Positions 42,225-49,864 of a stretch of DNA of 64,000 nt are shown here, in pieces. Source of the stretch: Phormidesmis sp. GTDB lineage: Bacteria > Cyanobacteriota > Cyanobacteriia > Leptolyngbyales > Leptolyngbyaceae. The notes below the pieces were generated by a model, which was not told the origin of the DNA, did not search any database, and saw only the letters and a list, made by a program, of their open reading frames with translations. Every line of letters begins with the position of its first letter. Within the stretch, counting starts at the first letter, position 1. Position numbers and translations under genes: made by a program. Where the stretch lies: positions 544,001 to 608,000 of the forward strand of contig CBDFJR010000002.1 of the NCBI GenBank assembly GCA_965248535.1. Direction: 5' to 3'.

Positions 42225-45200
42225 CTAAGCTGACATCTGCATCCAGTCATCCATATCGGCAAATGAGCCGCATCCGGTCACATCCATCAAGGTTTGCAGC
42301 GTGGCTAAATCGCGCTTTTCCCACTCGACGAAGATCGTGTCTCGATCGTCGTCGGGCGGATGATAGCGATAAACTCGAACGCCGCCGCGTCGCCCATCAG
42401 CCGCCTGATCGCGTCCGGTGCAGGTGAGCTTGATGCCAATTTTGCCCAGCAGTGCTTGCACGATCGCCATCGGCACCATTCTCTCAGTGATGGTGACATT
42501 AAATAAGGTTTTGATGTCGTCTTTATACTGCATTGCAAAGGAGACGATATGCTGCACCTCTGCGTCAGTGGCTCGAATCTTTTCGTCTAGTTTGAATAGG
42601 TCGAGGAGCTTGAGCGCTCGCAGGGCTTCAACCTGGGCTGTTAACAGCCGCAAATCTTGAGCCACAACCTTACCGTTGCCCCGATCTAAATGTCCTTGAA
42701 GCTCTTGCATATCATGCAGTTGCACAAATTCGGGATCGTGCGTTAAGTAATAGTGAAGTCGTAGTTGAGCATACCAGCCTTCATCATCTTTGAGCTTTAC
42801 TTCTGGCGTAATTTCAACAGCATAGCGACGTTGTAGCTCGTGTTTGCGTTTGCTGTGGCGCTTGCGTATCGTTTGTGATGAATAATCTCTCAGTTCGTCA
42901 TATTCTTCGGAACTCAACTCCGCAGAGGTTGAGATAGCGATCGCTTCTGCTTTTTGATTTTGAGTTCTAATTTTTGCGACCGCTTGCACGACTTGCTCAG
43001 TGCTTTGGGCGTTGTGTCGCCAGTCTAAAAACTCAAACCCAGAAACTTTGAGCGACCCATTTTTTAATAAATACAGCATTTCTTGAGTGACCGGAGTTTG
43101 GGTAAAAATCTTGGTGGCATCATCGGTGACGATCGTGACTTGATGACCTTCCATAAATAAGCCGTTGTGGAGTTCTTTGCGGTAGCTCCAAAGCGAGGCG
43201 TTGACCCGTGCCGCCATTTTTGCCCAAGTGCGAAGCGCGATCGGGTCGCTCTGCTCGTCTAAATCAAAATCGACTTCCTTTAAAAGAGAAATGTTGTATT
43301 TGACGGCTTTAGTGATTGATTGCGCTACGTCTCGATAGTTGCAGCTTCCGTTACCAATCTTGATCGGGCTGAAGTGAGTGCCCCACACAAAGCGCGGCAC
43401 CGATTCACGCACTCGTGCCAGGGCTTGACGCGATTCTGAGTCGGGCGTGACTCCTTGAAAGATGCCAAACACCGCTTGAAAGTGTCCGCGCACGTCGATC
43501 GAGACTCCACTCCCGATCGTCGGGGTTGACAGCACAATATCGTAGTCAGAAATAATTTGATTCAGTCGATCAACCACCCTAAACGCCGGATGTTCTGGAT
43601 CGGCAACACTTTCACTGTCGATTCTCAAAATGCGCTTGTCTGGGAATCGCAACTTAAGATAACTCTCTAAGTTTTTAGAACTCCACTTGCCCTTAACTTT
43701 TTGAGAATCGACACAGACAAAAACGGCTCCCGTTTCGATGACTTCTTCCATGCGGGCAACCAGCGGCGCAGGATTTTTGGTGTCGTAGAGAGAGACATCC
43801 CAGCCTAAGTCAGGCTTCCATTGGTTGATGACAAGCCAGGGCGCGATCGTAAACTCTGCCAGTCCTTTTAAATAGTCCAAACTGACATCCGACAGGTCAG
43901 CATCTTGGGCGATCAACAATCCCTGAGTTGAGAGAACAATCTGCACCAATTCTCTCAGCGTCTCTAAAATTCTGACGCGCTGGTGACAGCAGGTTGAACT
44001 GTTGAGCGCGTGCCAGAGAACCTGCTCGACCTCATCAAGAATGACGATCGCGCCCTCCCAATCTTCGGGGTTAAATCGCGCTTTTGAGCCAGAATGCAGA
44101 GAGTCAATGCACAGCCCATAGCCATAGATGCCTTGAGTTTCAGACTCTGGCACGTCTTCGATCCAATCTAAATCTAAGCTGTTGCAAATTGCTTTGCCGA
44201 GTTGAATGCGGTGCGTAATCACTAAAACCCTTCGCCCTTGCGATCGGGCGGCTTTGATCAGGGCTTGCAGCGCTGTTGTTTTGCCCGTCCCTTTAGGACT
44301 TTTGACCCCGACTAAACCAGAGGTTGGGTAAGGCAAATCTCCTAGATAGGGTTGATTGAGGGCGATCGTCGGCGCATAAGTTAACGACCACAAACGAGAG
44401 GCTTGCCAAAACTCTAGCGTGACAGCAGCGTCATAAATGTCTGCAAACGCCTCCTGTCCCCAAGCGACGACGAAATCATCTACGCCTTTTTGCGGCCCTG
44501 GCAGGGCGATGACTTTGACTTCACAGCCTGCACGATTTAACAATTGACCCAGCCGAGACGTTGCCAGCACAATGTTTTGAATGGTCTTCGGCTTGGTCTC
44601 ATAGTCAAAGCAGATATACACCGATCGCCCCTCGCTCGCAAAGTGGGCCAACTCTGCAATCAACTGCCGGGTGTCTCGACGATAGCCGCTAAAAATGCCG
44701 GGTAGCGCGATCGCCACATAGCCCAAACTCAGCAAGCACCCAGCTTTCTTTTCGCCCTCGGTCAAAATCAACGGCAGATTATTTTGCCAAACCCATTGCC
44801 AAAACATTTTTTTGTCTTCAAGGTCTGTCGGCAGGGCAATCTGATAGCGATCGGCAACGCGCTGCCAAATCGACTCTGGCACCTCTAGCAGCACCAATCG
44901 GCTAGACCCTTTGCCTAGACTGGGACTGAGATACTTTGCAGGCTTTCGCTTGGCCCGATCGAACACGGGTGTCTCAGCATCTGGCTTAAACCGTCCCCAC
45001 TCCATGCGCTGCCAGTCGCCAAACGGGTCAATGCCGCTGACCCACCAACCCCGCACATTTTGACGCGCTTCTTGGCCAAACCGCGTCACGCTCCAGTGCA
45101 AATGTTCGGCGATCGGGTAAGAAACCTCGTGAGTAAAGGGGTCGATCGCCGTGTCGCCCAGGGTTCGCACATTGAGCCGAATGATGCCCCGATCGACTCC

Positions 45201-45326
45201 GCTATCTAGCCATTCTTGCTCGTGCTCAAGGGCAAGCTCAGAGTCTGTTAGAGCTAAATTAAGGGGTTGCAAAGCGAGGGGCGACTCTAGCATTGAGCCG
45301 CCACAACTGGTACAATTTATCAGCAT
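42225..45326 (-). CDS. Plasmid-type replication protein, CyRepA1-like (DUF3854 TOPRIM primase plus helicase)
   Basis: TOPRIM-like LTEGEKKAG, CFDYE, KGVDD; Walker A SPKGTGKTT; Walker B ILDEVEQ; TIGSGVSID; QALARVR. Start 45326 or 45293. Confidence 0.88.
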   Translation of the reverse strand: MLINCTSCGGSMLESPLALQPLNLALTDSELALEHEQEWLDSGVDRGIIRLNVRTLGDTAIDPFTHEVSYPIAEHLHWSVTRFGQEARQNVRGWWVSGIDPFGDWQRMEWGRFKPDAETPVFDRAKRKPAKYLSPSLGKGSSRLVLLEVPESIWQRVADRYQIALPTDLEDKKMFWQWVWQNNLPLILTEGEKKAGCLLSLGYVAIALPGIFSGYRRDTRQLIAELAHFASEGRSVYICFDYETKPKTIQNIVLATSRLGQLLNRAGCEVKVIALPGPQKGVDDFVVAWGQEAFADIYDAAVTLEFWQASRLWSLTYAPTIALNQPYLGDLPYPTSGLVGVKSPKGTGKTTALQALIKAARSQGRRVLVITHRIQLGKAICNSLDLDWIEDVPESETQGIYGYGLCIDSLHSGSKARFNPEDWEGAIVILDEVEQVLWHALNSSTCCHQRVRILETLRELVQIVLSTQGLLIAQDADLSDVSLDYLKGLAEFTIAPWLVINQWKPDLGWDVSLYDTKNPAPLVARMEEVIETGAVFVCVDSQKVKGKWSSKNLESYLKLRFPDKRILRIDSESVADPEHPAFRVVDRLNQIISDYDIVLSTPTIGSGVSIDVRGHFQAVFGIFQGVTPDSESRQALARVRESVPRFVWGTHFSPIKIGNGSCNYRDVAQSITKAVKYNISLLKEVDFDLDEQSDPIALRTWAKMAARVNASLWSYRKELHNGLFMEGHQVTIVTDDATKIFTQTPVTQEMLYLLKNGSLKVSGFEFLDWRHNAQSTEQVVQAVAKIRTQNQKAEAIAISTSAELSSEEYDELRDYSSQTIRKRHSKRKHELQRRYAVEITPEVKLKDDEGWYAQLRLHYYLTHDPEFVQLHDMQELQGHLDRGNGKVVAQDLRLLTAQVEALRALKLLDLFKLDEKIRATDAEVQHIVSFAMQYKDDIKTLFNVTITERMVPMAIVQALLGKIGIKLTCTGRDQAADGRRGGVRVYRYHPPDDDRDTIFVEWEKRDLATLQTLMDVTGCGSFADMDDWMQMSA

Positions 45327-45374
45327 AAGAAATCGATTCCCAGCAAAATGTTGGAATCATAAGGTTGCATTCAG

Positions 45375-45489
45375 ACCCCTTTAGCAGACTGTGGTAGGGA
45401 CGCTAGAGGGGTTTTGCTTGTCTAGACTTCTGCGAGTGGTAGGTCACAGTCAGTCTGAGTGGTAGGTCAGACTGCATCTAGCAAAGCAA
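45375..45489. promoter_or_regulatory. Three hairpins each carrying GTGGTAGG in the loop
   Basis: GTGGTAGG at 45391, 45436, 45459. Stems: 45375-45385/45402-45412; 45430-45435/45444-45449; perfect CAGTCTGA/TCAGACTG at 45451-45458/45467-45474. Outer stem 45414-45426/45477-45489. Confidence 0.6.
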
Positions 45490-45591
45490 GATTGGTCATC
45501 ACGCTACGGATAGTAGTTCTAGGAACTGCCGTGGTGTGAATGAGACATTAGCATCCAACATTTCACAACTCAAGGGGCAGTTCGTTGGCAT

Positions 45592-45894
45592 ACGCGCAAG
45601 TTATAGGTGAATTTTACGCGGGCGTTGCAGGCTAAAACCAGACGCGGGAGTGACGGGATCGCTCGGTGTTCCTCCGCCAAAGTTATGGCAAAAACTCGAC
45701 GCTAAAGTTACAGGACGCAGGATGAAACGCTTGATGGCAACGAGTCTGATTTGCCTAGATGAGCCATAAGGAAAGCGTTAAGTGAGACGCTGGAGTCACA
45801 GCCACGATCGGCGTTTCTACTCCAAAGTTACAGGCGCAAAACAGACGCTAAAGTTACAGGTCAATCGAAAAAAAACATACGCGGGCGTTATGGC
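45592..45894 (+). repeat. Iteron-like array of nine degenerate 16-bp direct repeats (consensus about ACGCtaaAGTTAcAGG)
   Basis: Copies start at 45592, 45616, 45642, 45674, 45699, 45787, 45819, 45845, 45879; ACGCTAAAGTTACAGG is exact at 45699 and 45845. Confidence 0.8.
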
Positions 45895-46090
45895 ATCAGA
45901 TCGAAGGTACTATCTACATACAGAGTTAAAGCAAAGCTTCTCTGAGTCACACCGCTAGATATAGCGTCCAACTTCTGGACAAAATCGAAACCTTAATGCA
46001 GGATATGTACGGTCAGCCATTTGAGGTGAGTCGGTCGGCCCTAGCCGTCAACCCGTCCTCCCTGTGCTCCCGTTCCTTTATCTGCGATCG

Positions 46091-47173
46091 ATGAAAAAAC
46101 TAGAGGCAACGTTCCCTGTAGACGGGCAACTCTTGATGGTGTTGCCCAGGGCTGCCGCATCTCTCAAAAACCCAGATTTGCAACTTCCGATCTTGCGGTC
46201 TGACGCAGACGGCTATTATCTCGAAGTCCGCGTTGAGGCAGACCCCAGAGAGAGCAGCGAACTCACGCTGATTCGGCGAGTGCCGCTCGAAAATCTCTCG
46301 GCCGAGGAATGGGAAGATCTCAAGGCCGAATATGCCAAGCTCGACTGGAGTGTTTGCGCCCATCAAGGCATCAGCAAAGGGCTAGAGAAAATTCAAGACC
46401 GCAAAACTCAGCGTTTGTTTGCCGCTCTGCTGACGTTTCTCAACCCTCGACAAGTGTCGATCGTGCTTTATCTCTACAAGCTGGCGGCTCAACAGGGCAA
46501 TGGCGCGATCGTGACCTTTCGATCAAACGATTTGTTAGAGATTTTGGGCTACACCCGCACCAAAGATGGCGGATTTGCATCCAAGCTACGATCGCAGCTT
46601 AACCGTGATTTAGTCTCGCTTCACCGCACTGAATTAGTGCTAGCTCAATCCTTTAGAAAAGGCGCTCAAACTATGGGAGCCAAAGTCATGATCAAGAGTG
46701 TTTTGAGGATTAAAGATTACGAAATCGACAACGTGCCTCGTGATTTTGATCTCAGCAAAGCCGCCGATTATACCTATGAGTTAGCAGACGCTTATACGAT
46801 TTCTTTAGAGTTTTTTGATGGCCCGTCTCGCACCGGAGATTCTGTTCTATTTGCTAGCACGATCGACATCACTCAAAAGTTAGGCAATAACGCTAAAAGT
46901 GATTATAAAACAAAGCTATTGATCTACTTGGCTAGCCGCATGAAATGGGACACGCTGCAAGAGGGTCAATATGTCGTAATTTCCAAGCAATACTTGTTTA
47001 AAAACCTAGATTTGTTGGGCAGCAATTCATCTCGAAACAATCAAATTTTTTGGCGCACTGTTGAAGAATTAAAGCAAGCCGGCTACATTTTAGGCGCTCA
47101 AGAGCTACCGGGTAAAAACAAGATTGTGAGTGTGCAGTTTCAAATTAATTCGGCAAAGTTGAAATGTCATTGA
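46091..47173 (+). CDS. Hypothetical protein with two predicted winged-helix domains, Rep initiator-like
   Basis: LNPRQVSIVLYLY...VTFRSNDLLEILGY...LRSQLNRDLVSL and KLLIYLA...ISKQYLFKNLDL...FWRTVEELKQAGYI; divergent from the primase-helicase across the repeat array. Confidence 0.65.
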   Translation: MKKLEATFPVDGQLLMVLPRAAASLKNPDLQLPILRSDADGYYLEVRVEADPRESSELTLIRRVPLENLSAEEWEDLKAEYAKLDWSVCAHQGISKGLEKIQDRKTQRLFAALLTFLNPRQVSIVLYLYKLAAQQGNGAIVTFRSNDLLEILGYTRTKDGGFASKLRSQLNRDLVSLHRTELVLAQSFRKGAQTMGAKVMIKSVLRIKDYEIDNVPRDFDLSKAADYTYELADAYTISLEFFDGPSRTGDSVLFASTIDITQKLGNNAKSDYKTKLLIYLASRMKWDTLQEGQYVVISKQYLFKNLDLLGSNSSRNNQIFWRTVEELKQAGYILGAQELPGKNKIVSVQFQINSAKLKCH

Positions 47174-47288: not shown

Positions 47289-47786
47289 ATGGGCAAGGTT
47301 CTGGTGCTCAATGCCTCCTACGAACCGCTCAACATAACCAGTTGGCGACGAGCGGTCGTTTTGTTAATCAAGGGCAAAGCAGAGCAGGTCGAACATAACG
47401 GTAAATATGTTTACTCAGGGTTTCCGTTGCCAACGGTGATCCGTCTGCGCCACTATGTCCGCGTTCCCTACAAAGAAATTCCTCTGACTCGAAAGAACCT
47501 GCTGCATCGAGACAGCCATTCCTGTCAATATTGTGGCTATGGGGGTGATGATTTGACGCTTGATCATGTGATCCCGCGATCGCGGGGCGGTGGTGACTCG
47601 TGGGAAAATATCGTCACGGCTTGCGTGCGCTGCAACGTCAAAAAGGGCAGCCGCACCCCTAAAGAAGCCAATATGCCCCTGCAATATCCGCCTCGCAAGC
47701 CCTATAGCAGTCTCTATTTTGAAGTCACAAAACACGTCAAAAACGGCGTGAATCAAGAATGGCGTAAATACGTCATTGGTATTTGA
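47289..47786 (+). CDS. HNH endonuclease (conserved cyanobacterial McrA-like family)
   Basis: VLVLNASYEPL, RDSHSCQYCG, TLDHVIPRSRGG, WENIVTACVRCNVKKG. Confidence 0.93.
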   Translation: MGKVLVLNASYEPLNITSWRRAVVLLIKGKAEQVEHNGKYVYSGFPLPTVIRLRHYVRVPYKEIPLTRKNLLHRDSHSCQYCGYGGDDLTLDHVIPRSRGGGDSWENIVTACVRCNVKKGSRTPKEANMPLQYPPRKPYSSLYFEVTKHVKNGVNQEWRKYVIGI

Positions 47787-47957: not shown

Positions 47958-49316
47958 ATGCCCTACCAGGGTAGCATCCTGGCTCCCTCCTCTATGCCAC
48001 CCACTATGCAATCTGATTCGAGTCCATCGCTTAATACATCGCTTAATACTTTGTTAATCACAATGGAACCAGATCCCGCATCTGGGTTGAGTTCGACGGT
48101 TGACTATTCCACCCTTGAGCCTGCTACAAAAGTGACTAATGGCGGGGGATATGCTAGTGAATATCGAGGCCGCTTTCCTTACGATGCGGCTCGATCGCCC
48201 GAACAAGAGCAAAAAATAGACGCATTTCGGCAGACTCTAGACCGTCACCGTGGCGATCGTCAGATTGTGATTCTGCAAGACTTTCCTGACCCTGATGCCC
48301 TGTCTTCAGCGTGGACTTATAAACTGATTGCCCAAAAATATGAAATTCACTGCGATATTGTCTATGCAGGAACCCTCAGCCATCAAGAAAACATTGCCTT
48401 AGTTAAGTTGACGGGGCTGCCCCTTCAGCGCTGGACGGTGCAATCACTCAAGACAAAAGATCTGTCGATCTACAAAGGCTGTGTGTTTATTGACAACCAG
48501 GGAACCACGAGCCAGCTATTTACGTCGATGCAGCAGGCTGGCGTGCCGATCGCTGTTGTTATCGATCATCACAGTATGCAAGACGACATGAGGGCAGAGT
48601 TTGTCGATATTCGTCCCCACACTCGTGCAACTGCCACGATTTTGACCCAATATCTGCAATCTGGGCTGCTAAAACTCGACAATAATTTGACTGAGCACGT
48701 CAAGTGTGCGACTTCGCTGATGCATGGGCTGAGATCCGATACCAATCGCCTCATGCAGGCTCAAGAAGAGGATTTTTTAGCGGCAGCTTATTTGAGCCGC
48801 TTTTATGATGCTCAGTTGCTAAATGCAGTGCTGCAATCATCTCGATCAAAGCAGGTCATGGATGTGATCGAGAGATCGCTGAAAAATCGCACGGTGCACA
48901 ACAACTTCTCGATCGCGGGGGTTGGCTATCTGCGCTATGACGATCGCGATGCGATCCCGCAGGCTGCTGATTTCCTAGTCACGGAGGAAAACGTCCATAC
49001 GGCGGTCGTTTACGGCATCGTTCATGACGAAGACGAGGAGCTAGAAGTGGTGGTCGGCTCGTTAAGAACCAATAAACTCACCCTTGATCCCGACGAGTTT
49101 ATTAAAGAAGCCTTTGGGCAAGATGCTCAGGGTCGCTTTTTTGGCGGCGGGCGATCGCAGGCGGGCGGGTTTGAGATTCCGATGGGCTTTTTGTCTGGCT
49201 TCACCGAAAACAGCGATTATGCCAAGATGAAGTGGAGCGTTCATGATGCCCAGGTCAAGCAAAAACTGCTGCGGCTGGTCAACCCAGAGCAAAACTATCC
49301 CAAAGGCGTGAACTAA
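47958..49316 (+). CDS. DHH family phosphoesterase (NrnA-like)
   Basis: QDFPDPDALSS, IDHH, GLRSDT, FGGGR; start uncertain. Confidence 0.9.
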   Translation: MPYQGSILAPSSMPPTMQSDSSPSLNTSLNTLLITMEPDPASGLSSTVDYSTLEPATKVTNGGGYASEYRGRFPYDAARSPEQEQKIDAFRQTLDRHRGDRQIVILQDFPDPDALSSAWTYKLIAQKYEIHCDIVYAGTLSHQENIALVKLTGLPLQRWTVQSLKTKDLSIYKGCVFIDNQGTTSQLFTSMQQAGVPIAVVIDHHSMQDDMRAEFVDIRPHTRATATILTQYLQSGLLKLDNNLTEHVKCATSLMHGLRSDTNRLMQAQEEDFLAAAYLSRFYDAQLLNAVLQSSRSKQVMDVIERSLKNRTVHNNFSIAGVGYLRYDDRDAIPQAADFLVTEENVHTAVVYGIVHDEDEELEVVVGSLRTNKLTLDPDEFIKEAFGQDAQGRFFGGGRSQAGGFEIPMGFLSGFTENSDYAKMKWSVHDAQVKQKLLRLVNPEQNYPKGVN

Positions 49317-49363
49317 ATCTTTTGCAAAACAAGGTAGAACGTAGAGAGCGTTCTACTTTGTTT

Positions 49364-49864
49364 ATGTCAACCTTTGATCTCTATCTTATTCGTCACGGAC
49401 TAGCCGGACAGCACGGCGACTATGAAGATGATCGCCAACGACCATTAACTGAAGAAGGCGATCGCAAAACTCATCAGGTTGCCAAGCGAATGGGTGAGTT
49501 GGGTTTGACGTTTGATCTGATCTTGACGAGTCCACTAGTTCGGGCTAGGCAAACGGCCGAGATTCTGCAAAAAGCTGGGTTGAGCAAGCATCTTCAAGAA
49601 GCTGCCTATCTTGCGCCGGGTGGTAATATCCAGACCTGGAGCAATTGGCTAGACGATTGGAAGCAAGCCGAAAAATCTCTAGCATTAGTCGGCCATGAGC
49701 CAGACTTGAGCACGTGGGCTGAGACCTTGATCTGGGGGAGCGCTCAAGGCAGGTTTACCCTCAAAAAAGCGGGCGCGATCGGGCTGACGCTGCCGTTGTC
49801 AGGTTCTCCGATCGCCCACAGCCAACTATTCTGGCTAACCCCCCCTCGGTTGCTGATTGCTTAA
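49364..49864 (+). CDS. sixA: Phosphohistidine phosphatase SixA
   Basis: LYLIRHG, RPLTEEG, TSPLVRARQTA, LVGHEPDL. Confidence 0.92.
   Translation: MSTFDLYLIRHGLAGQHGDYEDDRQRPLTEEGDRKTHQVAKRMGELGLTFDLILTSPLVRARQTAEILQKAGLSKHLQEAAYLAPGGNIQTWSNWLDDWKQAEKSLALVGHEPDLSTWAETLIWGSAQGRFTLKKAGAIGLTLPLSGSPIAHSQLFWLTPPRLLIA

Follow-up and report, generated by a model that had tools for sequence, protein, structure and literature searches.

The regulatory region of a chromosomal replication gene of the CyRepA1 family in the cyanobacterium Phormidesmis sp. contains three stem-loops, each of which presents the same eight nucleotides in its loop. The gene (rep hereafter) and the stem-loops lie in a stretch of 64,000 nucleotides (contig CBDFJR010000002.1 of assembly GCA_965248535.1, positions 544,001 to 608,000), which was analysed as a whole and is termed the window; coordinates are counted from its first letter, and the contig itself comprises 2.475 Mb. 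In this report we outline evidence that the hairpins probably belong to the untranslated leader of rep and to a small antisense RNA that controls rep, present as two overlapping RNAs. An earlier, sequence-only reading of the same DNA had offered two explanations, namely primase start sites or an undescribed rep-leader/antisense RNA. The latter is well supported by conservation among relatives, covariation of the stems, the strand on which G-U pairs occur and predicted promoters on both strands.

The octamer GTGGTAGG is found at 45391-45398, 45436-45443 and 45459-45466, always on the plus strand, and no further copy is present in the window. The copies constitute direct repeats with start-to-start spacings of 45 and 23 bp. 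Shuffled versions of the whole window contain 0.56 copies on average, and three copies anywhere were reached in 3 of 100 shuffles; a one-strand trio inside 76 nt is far beyond chance. Throughout the 5.03-Mb genome the octamer occurs 34 times in forward and 34 times in reverse orientation, compared to 72 and 70 occurrences of the reversed control word. Since the octamer is no commoner than the control, it does not qualify as a dispersed repeat, and this idea was rejected. The sole other cluster (C2:167400-168400, at 167.5-168.3 kb) lies outside the window and consists of 120-nt tandem units, each with GTGGTAGG; this array looks like a repeat-protein coding gene and is unrelated to the hairpins.

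Each of the three copies sits in a hairpin loop on a stem of its own sequence, as the sequence-only reading had stated and as an inverted-repeat listing and a minus-strand fold confirm (Table 1). Two further details of that reading hold as well: hairpin 2 is fully paired on the minus strand with one G-U pair, and an 11/13 outer stem, recovered by repeat listing and fold alike, surrounds hairpins 2 and 3 and yields a three-way junction. Folded as minus-strand RNA, positions 45365-45500 form the outer stem and all three hairpins, each with CCUACCAC in its loop, at -43.6 kcal/mol, compared to -28.8 +/- 3.35 kcal/mol for shuffled sequences (z -4.42, none of 200 as good), and the three-way junction is present in both the minimum free energy (MFE) and the centroid structure. 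The plus-strand fold retains hairpin 1 and loses hairpins 2 and 3 (z -2.49, 3 of 200 shuffles as good). The gene, the product of which harbours a DUF3854 domain, has its ATG at 45326, and the hairpins lie 49-163 nt upstream of it. The outer stem is kept in five relatives of the same genus, among which variation is too low to gauge covariation. A cmscan search of 45150-46150 on both strands against Rfam with E values up to 10 returned only a chance match to a small nucleolar RNA (13.2 bits, gathering threshold 40), blastn of 45300-46100 against the plasmids of PLSDB gave no match, and no description of the hairpin element was found in the literature outside supplements.

Table 1. Features of the rep leader region and its surroundings, with strand where one is assigned
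Feature	Position	Strand	Description
Hairpin 1	45375-45385/45402-45412	+	11-nt stem, 91% complementary; 16-nt loop with GUGGUAGG at 45391-45398
Hairpin 2	45430-45435/45444-45449	-	6-bp stem CUGUGA/UCGCAG; loop CCUACCAC (45436-45443); one G-U on minus strand, C-A on plus strand
Hairpin 3	45451-45458/45467-45474	-	8-bp stem CAGUCUGA/UCAGACUG, 100% complementary; 8-nt loop CCUACCAC (45459-45466)
Outer stem	45414-45426/45477-45489	-	13 nt, 11/13 paired, 85%; encloses hairpins 3 and 2
U-tract UUUGCUUG	45413..45420	+	directly after hairpin 1; nearly invariant A-tract on sense strand
Predicted antisense promoter	45308..45316	+	extended -10 TGGTACAAT, about 95 nt upstream of hairpin 1; no -35 recognised
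Predicted cis-antisense RNA, about 95 nt	45323..45420	+	12-nt 5' tail, hairpin B', spacer, terminator hairpin 1; ends inferred from promoter and U-tract
Predicted sense promoter	45545..45573	-	-35 TTGAGT (45568-45573), 17-nt spacer, extended -10 TGCTAATGT (45545-45553)
Hairpin B (GAUUCC...GGAAUC)	45335..45358		present in both RNAs
Conserved ATG, leader ORF start	45324..45326	-	site where the predicted antisense RNA would begin; in frame into rep here
Hairpin C (GGCGGCUC-AAUGCUA-GAGUCGCC)	45280..45302	-	within leader ORF, sense RNA only
CyRepA1-family primase-helicase gene, 1033 aa	42225..45326	-	Pfam DUF3854, E 3.8e-44; NCBIfam NF042913, 430.3 bits (cut-off 200)
About 10 iteron-like repeats	45591..45897		repeat families D1-D3; (T/G)ACGCnnnAGTTACAGG on plus strand
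Divergent conserved gene, about 360 aa	46064..47173	+	beyond iterons; family unassigned by Pfam/NCBIfam
(aa, amino acids; ORF, open reading frame)

The conservation of these elements was assessed in three samples of relatives. The first comprises orthologues found by a search with the Rep protein, and the second originates from a pattern scan with one genome per species, which returned at least 117 matching stretches, 80 loci of which were examined. The third consists of 40 loci anchored on the divergent 360-aa gene alone and is free of motif selection. All relatives are kin and not independent, so that counts overstate the number of independent events; the pattern-selected and protein-anchored samples overlap, and the counts of leader ORFs given below are not de-duplicated.

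All three octamers occur in four of five same-genus relatives obtained by the Rep search (90-91% identity), and the fifth has one exact octamer plus the degenerate forms CCTACTAC and CCTATCAC. Five Rep orthologues of 61-76% identity all retain the hairpin 1 loop, which was not found in those of 56% and 49% identity. Among the 80 loci of the pattern scan, at least 26 contain the full hairpin, and all of these are cyanobacterial by record title; the other 54 represent isolated matches in unrelated taxa, the chance expectation for 15 specified bases. In the third sample, every one of the 22 loci with a CyRepA protein at least 52% identical shows the hairpin 1 loop, and 21 of them harbour one or two further hairpins with CUACCAC, the loop 7-mer as it reads on the sense strand of rep. 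The motif occurs in none of five loci with CyRepA of about 34% identity. Eight loci have a different rep gene, and among these hairpin 1 alone is found once and extra CUACCAC hairpins are not found at all; the remaining five loci are uninformative. No motif cluster was detected in 17 loci that include paralogous CyRepA loci, the plasmid pOSC7112.01 and pSYSA. The sequence-only reading had hinged on the conservation of loop and stems in orthologues: the loop is conserved, and the stems covary.

Hairpin 1 provides the first indication of an antisense RNA. Its 36 distinct versions, compared at 11 stem positions each (396 in total), comprise 310 Watson-Crick pairs, 41 pairs that are G-U in the antisense RNA only, 7 that are G-U in the sense RNA only and 38 other combinations. 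Judged by this bias, hairpin 1 is selected to fold on the plus strand, opposite to hairpins 2 and 3. Pair counts for hairpins 1 and C together reveal 82.4% of cells paired, compared to 74.0% in shuffled alignments (reached by none of 500) and 28-50% in slid controls, and compensatory changes affect 15 of their 19 pairs; RNAalifold likewise indicates covariation. The A-tract, which corresponds to the U-tract on the sense strand, is found before the hairpin in nearly all 36 versions, with alignment positions A19-A22 at least 90% conserved. We read hairpin 1 as the putative terminator of an antisense RNA and its complement as the target hairpin in the leader.

Of 31 aligned sequences, 30 match TGnTAnnAT at the predicted promoter of this RNA. 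The invariant columns of this motif include third codon positions of the leader ORF and second positions vary, a pattern that fits an extended -10 element and does not fit a constraint on the encoded peptide. The antisense RNA predicted from these boundaries folds at -33.1 kcal/mol (z -2.95) and carries GUGGUA at the tip of its terminator.

Hairpins 2 and 3 and their counterparts in relatives show the opposite polarity. In MFE folds of 51 distinct 35-nt segments around the extra copies, the 7-mer lies wholly in a hairpin loop in 47 cases on the sense strand versus 20 on the antisense strand, and in the unbiased subset the numbers are 31 and 18 of 34. A flanking stem of at least 4 bp is present at 97% of the motifs versus 23% of 1564 control positions. 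If G-U pairs are allowed, the longer stem is formed on the sense strand in 20 of 31 extra hairpins and on the antisense strand in 2, with 9 equal. Relatives present CUACCAC in loops of 7-8 nt on stems, the sequences of which are unrelated between genera, and the copy number and spacing of these hairpins vary widely (offsets of -41 to -226 from hairpin 1). The strand preference supports the assignment of hairpins 2 and 3 to the putative sense leader.

These features also bear on the notion that GTGGTAGG is a double-stranded DNA operator for a transcription factor acting on the rep promoter, the inverted repeats being incidental. The arrangement of the copies as direct repeats on one strand, spaced by 45 and 23 bp, would suit such a site, yet the flanking stems covary and are strand-asymmetric, copy number and spacing differ between genera, and the octamers are located downstream of the predicted promoter and not over it. 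An operator of this kind appears scarcely credible.

The sense leader is delimited by a second predicted promoter, from which the start of the RNA is inferred at about 45537-45541 (about 45538). The expression TTGAGn-N14-TGnTAAnnT, applied strictly, matches upstream of the CUACCAC hairpins in 40 of 71 locus entries, and relaxed forms were recognised by eye elsewhere. The distance from the predicted -10 element to the first CUACCAC motif amounts to about 18-21 nt in several genera, which places the 5' arm of the first hairpin near the predicted 5' end of the RNA. Such proximity to the transcript start would be in line with a role of hairpins 2 and 3 as 5'-proximal structures that stabilise the mRNA or direct its processing, for example by RNase E, with loops that have no partner in trans; RNase E processing is central to the pSYSA system (PMC9978351). 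However, a stabiliser needs a stem only, and here the 7-nt loop stays the same over the whole range of Rep identities (52-100%), on stems that are replaced entirely; in the window, the hairpins are also some 50 nt away from the predicted start. A mere stabilising or processing function is in our view improbable.

All elements are held within a 269-nt leader fold of -78 kcal/mol (z -3.64). All 30 distinct versions of hairpin B fold, on differing stems, with the antisense form the more stable in 18 of them and the sense form in 11. Hairpin C shows compensatory changes in 6 of 8 pairs as well as many G-U pairs on the sense strand (RNAalifold and pair counts). The conserved ATG opens a leader ORF. 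Of 53 locus entries, 27 have it as a separate frame with a length of 23-71 codons. In 14 of these 27 cases it ends with ...AGGAG...CTGATGG, such that its stop overlaps the rep ATG, an arrangement that suggests translational coupling. In the other 26 entries, including the window, the frame is open into rep as far as the sequence reaches. In this genus, the stop of the leader ORF has been lost, which fuses the ORF in frame with rep (45324-45240 of the window); the 1033-aa protein may carry about 25-30 leader-derived residues or use an internal start.

In the mechanism that we propose, a sense leader of about 210 nt would start at about 45538 and contain, in this order, hairpins 3 and 2, hairpin 1, hairpin B, the leader ORF and hairpin C. 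A cis-antisense RNA of about 95 nt would originate from about 45323 at TGGTACAAT and end with hairpin 1 and the U-tract at about 45415-45420. Its 5' tail would be the complement of a region that comprises the leader ORF start codon and the nucleotides upstream of it, and pairing at this site would keep the leader ORF, and with it Rep, from being translated. The terminator loop of the antisense RNA would expose GUGGUAGG, complementary to the loop of the target hairpin 1 and also to the CUACCAC loops of hairpins 2 and 3. A countertranscript logic of this type would explain the promoters on both strands, the terminator on the plus strand, the minus-strand hairpins 2, 3 and C, and the tail over the start codon. 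That the antisense RNA is transcribed and lowers Rep synthesis is predicted from the sequence.

The loops of hairpins 2 and 3 lie outside the region of antisense overlap, and up to three complementary leader loops exist per antisense loop; an 8-bp loop-loop duplex is predicted at -15.2 kcal/mol. It is this apparent disparity, a single antisense recognition loop versus up to three complementary loops in the leader, that is unusual. Hairpins 2 and 3 might provide the antisense RNA with additional kissing sites and act as decoys or, on the nascent leader, as landing pads; to this tentative proposal we assign slightly less than an even chance. A full-length duplexfold of the antisense RNA with the upstream leader was uninformative, as 121 of 300 shuffles were equally good.

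A number of observations weigh against the two-RNA interpretation. In the pattern-selected sample, the hairpin 1 loop is invariant partly because of the selection itself, and it is the protein-anchored samples that count. A terminator scan did not call hairpin 1, because its 16-nt loop exceeds 8 nt (the scan reported one unrelated terminator-like site at 45791-45774), and a generic sigma-70 scan of 45150-46150 found no promoter-like site on either strand, so that both promoter assignments rest on conservation and not on consensus strength. The available RNA-library data are unstranded Logan contigs from a relative about 90% alike and do not show transcription; a 670-nt contig (run X2) spans 45282-45739 and defines neither strand nor ends, and the gap in coverage at 44800-45258 carries no weight as evidence. 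The complementarity of the extra loops to the antisense loop stops at 7-8 nt. The extra hairpins accompany the CyRepA1 subfamily (21 of 22 loci) and occur in none of eight unbiased loci with another rep gene and in one of eleven such loci in the pattern-selected sample, among the matches listed; the antisense RNA as such therefore does not require them, and they are inherited together with a protein by which they might be recognised. Repeated loops were also sought in the loci with CyRepA of about 34% identity and in those with another rep gene, and nothing convincing was found, which leaves multi-site kissing without a second example here. Finally, the sequence of the one CyRepA1 system with a described antisense RNA is not recognisable: tblastn with Ssr7036 of pSYSA against the window region and 71 related leaders gave a best E value of 4.1 and no homologue, and blastn with the asRNA1 region of pSYSA gave a best E value of 0.77 and no significant similarity.

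The restriction of the extra hairpins to loci with CyRepA at least 52% identical (21 of 22, compared to 0 of 5 at about 34% identity and 0 of 8 with another rep gene) would also follow if the CUACCAC loops were protein-binding sites on the leader RNA, recognised by CyRepA1 itself, for autoregulation or for its loading onto RNA or an R-loop, or by a host RNA-binding protein; an antisense RNA may coexist with such sites. The combination of an invariant 7-mer with freely varying stems, number and position has the look of modular binding sites. On the other hand, the leader adjoins the gene, and co-occurrence may reflect linkage alone. Hairpin 1 furthermore displays the motif in a 16-nt loop, hence in another geometry, and does so also before an unrelated gene. 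We consider protein recognition unlikely. The 360-aa protein was rejected as a partner of the loops, since it is also present in motif-free loci.

A more elaborate scheme would combine both partners. The CUACCAC loops would be CyRepA1 sites on the leader RNA or on sense DNA displaced by an R-loop, such that transcription delivers the helicase-primase to a chromosomal, iteron-type and possibly DnaA-independent origin, and the antisense RNA would compete for the loops and set the firing rate. We regard this scheme as unlikely, too.

The 7-mer of the predicted antisense loop, GTGGTAG, also occurs in the D-loop of 7 of the 52 tRNAs of the genome (Lys, Gln, Val twice, Asn, Gly and Thr). The leader loops could sense tRNA by virtue of this likeness, which is probably a coincidence.

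The complementary-strand origin of phage G4 and the sites ssiA and ssiB of RSF1010 contain hairpins that are recognised by primases, and it was to such start sites that the sequence-only reading had compared the three hairpins. The likeness consists in a hairpin cluster near a primase gene and an origin-like region: the hairpins reside as potential single-stranded DNA (ssDNA) signals for the DUF3854 primase-helicase between the iterons and its gene, the extra hairpins co-occur with the CyRepA1 subfamily, and selection on one strand with varying stems would suit an ssDNA hairpin, too. In contrast to the G4 and RSF1010 sites, however, hairpin 1 and hairpins 2 and 3 are selected on opposite strands, which argues against a single three-hairpin ssDNA signal. 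The same hairpin 1 loop is shared with a different-rep replicon, where it precedes a gene without DUF3854, and this argues against recognition by the DUF3854 primase. The hairpins are situated in a leader, inside a predicted transcription unit between a conserved promoter and a start codon, and in several genera the first one is near the predicted 5' end of the RNA. Their stems often rely on G-U pairs (20 of 31), which are weaker as G-T in DNA, and the hairpin region is by eye not AT-rich, unlike an unwinding element. Primase start sites therefore find little favour with us, and we return to the rep leader and its predicted antisense RNA.

The leader is not tied to a single type of rep gene. 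In 11 of the at least 26 pattern loci, hairpin 1, hairpin B, the ATG and the -10 box precede an unrelated gene for a protein of 560-600 aa; locus L042 lacks the ATG and the -10 box. The same iterons are found in some of these loci, and the same 360-aa gene is present in the two loci that were checked. This protein family (L158:3057-4742 on the minus strand, L159:2239-4044 on the plus strand and nine further loci) takes the position of CyRepA1 behind the leader. It is characterised by the motifs LFPHRFDYIYAPHP...LLDID...SSYSGGLHLYFP and matches no Pfam family at threshold and no NCBIfam model, the best match being Prim-Pol (E 0.078); the conserved motifs LLDID and SSYSGGLHLYFP recall primase-polymerases. 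A second leader class is associated with the CyRepA loci of about 34% identity (L168, L186-L188). It features two hairpins: an antisense-terminator-like one of its own, GCTCTC...GAGAGC after an A8 tract, and a conserved one that has CGCCGACCAAGCAAC as its loop and a stem that covaries between L168 and L186.

The wider surroundings of the leader have the features of an iteron replicon. Among the plasmid matches listed for the rep gene, most are annotated as "CyRepA1 family", and the best relative is 46% identical. The iteron CCTGTAACTCCGGCGTA is repeated 5-12 times in related loci. Of 90 genomes of the order, 56 contain the divergent 360-aa gene, mostly once per genome and often on contigs of Mb size, and its products are 50-97% identical across the order; the protein of the window is 83% identical to its homologue in a locus under the record Leptolyngbya sp. 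JSC-1. Its homologues number 449, and those listed with a name are all termed hypothetical. Searches with the 360-aa protein against Pfam and NCBIfam assigned no family, and Foldseek with a structural model (predicted local distance difference test score 61) found no match in the Protein Data Bank at E <= 0.001, the best E value being 0.01. The weak structural matches of the model are dominated by tandem winged-helix initiators (RepE54, pi and Rep complexes with a DNA unwinding element), and the 360-aa protein is possibly an iteron-binding initiator of this tandem winged-helix type.

The 360-aa gene, 5-12 iterons and a rep gene of varying type constitute a conserved module (window 45591-47173; L158-L162 and L163-L202), which may represent a second, plasmid-like origin. 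The gene dnaA (TIGR00362, 533.7 bits) is encoded on the same contig at 8960-10282 of the window, about 35 kb away from the module. The two large contigs have a flat GC skew with no clear turning point at the locus, and no origin can be placed on this basis. The 360-aa gene is followed on its 3' side by an ORF for an HNH endonuclease (47289-47786), a gene for a DHH-family protein (47958-49316) and an ORF of the histidine phosphatase family (49322-49864). In the relative L183 (G105:C8:2896002-2897762), a long ORF adjoins the 360-aa gene where iterons are expected, and iterons reappear at the end of the stretch; this ORF possibly represents a mobile element, the insertion of which displaced the iterons.

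Control of a rep leader by an antisense RNA has well-known counterparts. In the CopA-CopT-tap-repA system of R1/IncFII plasmids and the RNAI-repY-repZ system of IncB/IncI-alpha plasmids, blocking the leader ORF blocks synthesis of Rep. The enterobacterial countertranscripts are composed of a 5' tail, a stem-loop and a terminator, and the stop of the short leader ORF overlaps the rep start. The system described here resembles them in that a rep leader would be targeted and in the ...AGGAG...CTGATGG overlap of relatives, and differs in the lack of any sequence relationship and in the fusion of the leader ORF to rep in the window. Systems of the R1/IncB type are not known to carry additional target-like loops beyond the overlap. 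GTGGTAG, the complement of the CUACCAC loops, occurs on the sense strand only once among the 40 loci of the third sample, in a locus without the leader. As it was not found on the sense strand of the leaders, an intramolecular pseudoknot partner was discarded, and an activating pseudoknot of the IncB type is unlikely.

In the RNA I/RNA II system of ColE1, the first step of inhibition is the kissing of 7-nt loops of several hairpins, as outlined in the pSYSA study (PMC9978351). The extra hairpins of the present leader likewise have loops of 7-8 nt. Yet, the three loop pairs of ColE1 are all different and all located in the overlap, whereas the leader has up to three identical sense loops, one of which lies in the overlap. 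Unlike ColE1, the replicon is also Rep-dependent and has iterons.

The closest known parallel is provided by pSYSA of Synechocystis sp. PCC 6803, where the ssr7036 mRNA and the abundant antisense RNA asRNA1 precede cyRepA1 (slr7037) and a kissing-loop model has been proposed (Kaltenbrunner et al. 2023, PMC9978351). Antisense RNAs begin about 25 nt downstream of annotated CyRepX start codons, according to a second report (PMC10899382). Both systems have the same Rep family downstream (NF042913) and an antisense RNA, here a predicted one, upstream of rep. By our own reading of the pSYSA sequence against the published coordinates, the 3' end of asRNA1 coincides with a hairpin AAACCCCT...AGGGGTT followed by a T-rich run in the antisense orientation; this terminator matches hairpin 1 in position and stem type alone. 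The antisense RNA of pSYSA is about 150 nt long, contains three stem-loops and covers the coding sequence of a 64-aa gene (PMC9978351). In contrast, the antisense RNA predicted here would comprise about 95 nt and two stem-loops and cover the 5' untranslated region and the start codon of the leader ORF. Repeated loops were not seen by eye in pSYSA, and the present module differs from pSYSA in its chromosomal location and in having iterons and a second conserved gene.

Among CyRepA1 replicons, pSYSA is the only one for which control has been studied. CyRepA homologues are encoded on the chromosomes of 80 of 145 cyanobacteria, and their function still needs validation, according to Ohdate et al. 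(2024, PMC10899382). The locus analysed here adds a conserved RNA module with no match in Rfam, which combines a sense leader with a coupled leader ORF and a predicted antisense RNA of about 95 nt, and which is linked to a chromosomal iteron replicon. This replicon occurs in 56 of the 90 genomes of the order and also in several other Leptolyngbya-like genera. If the extra loops indeed serve as docking sites, a multi-site design would be added to antisense copy control. The module could also be employed as a regulated replication cassette in vectors for filamentous cyanobacteria.

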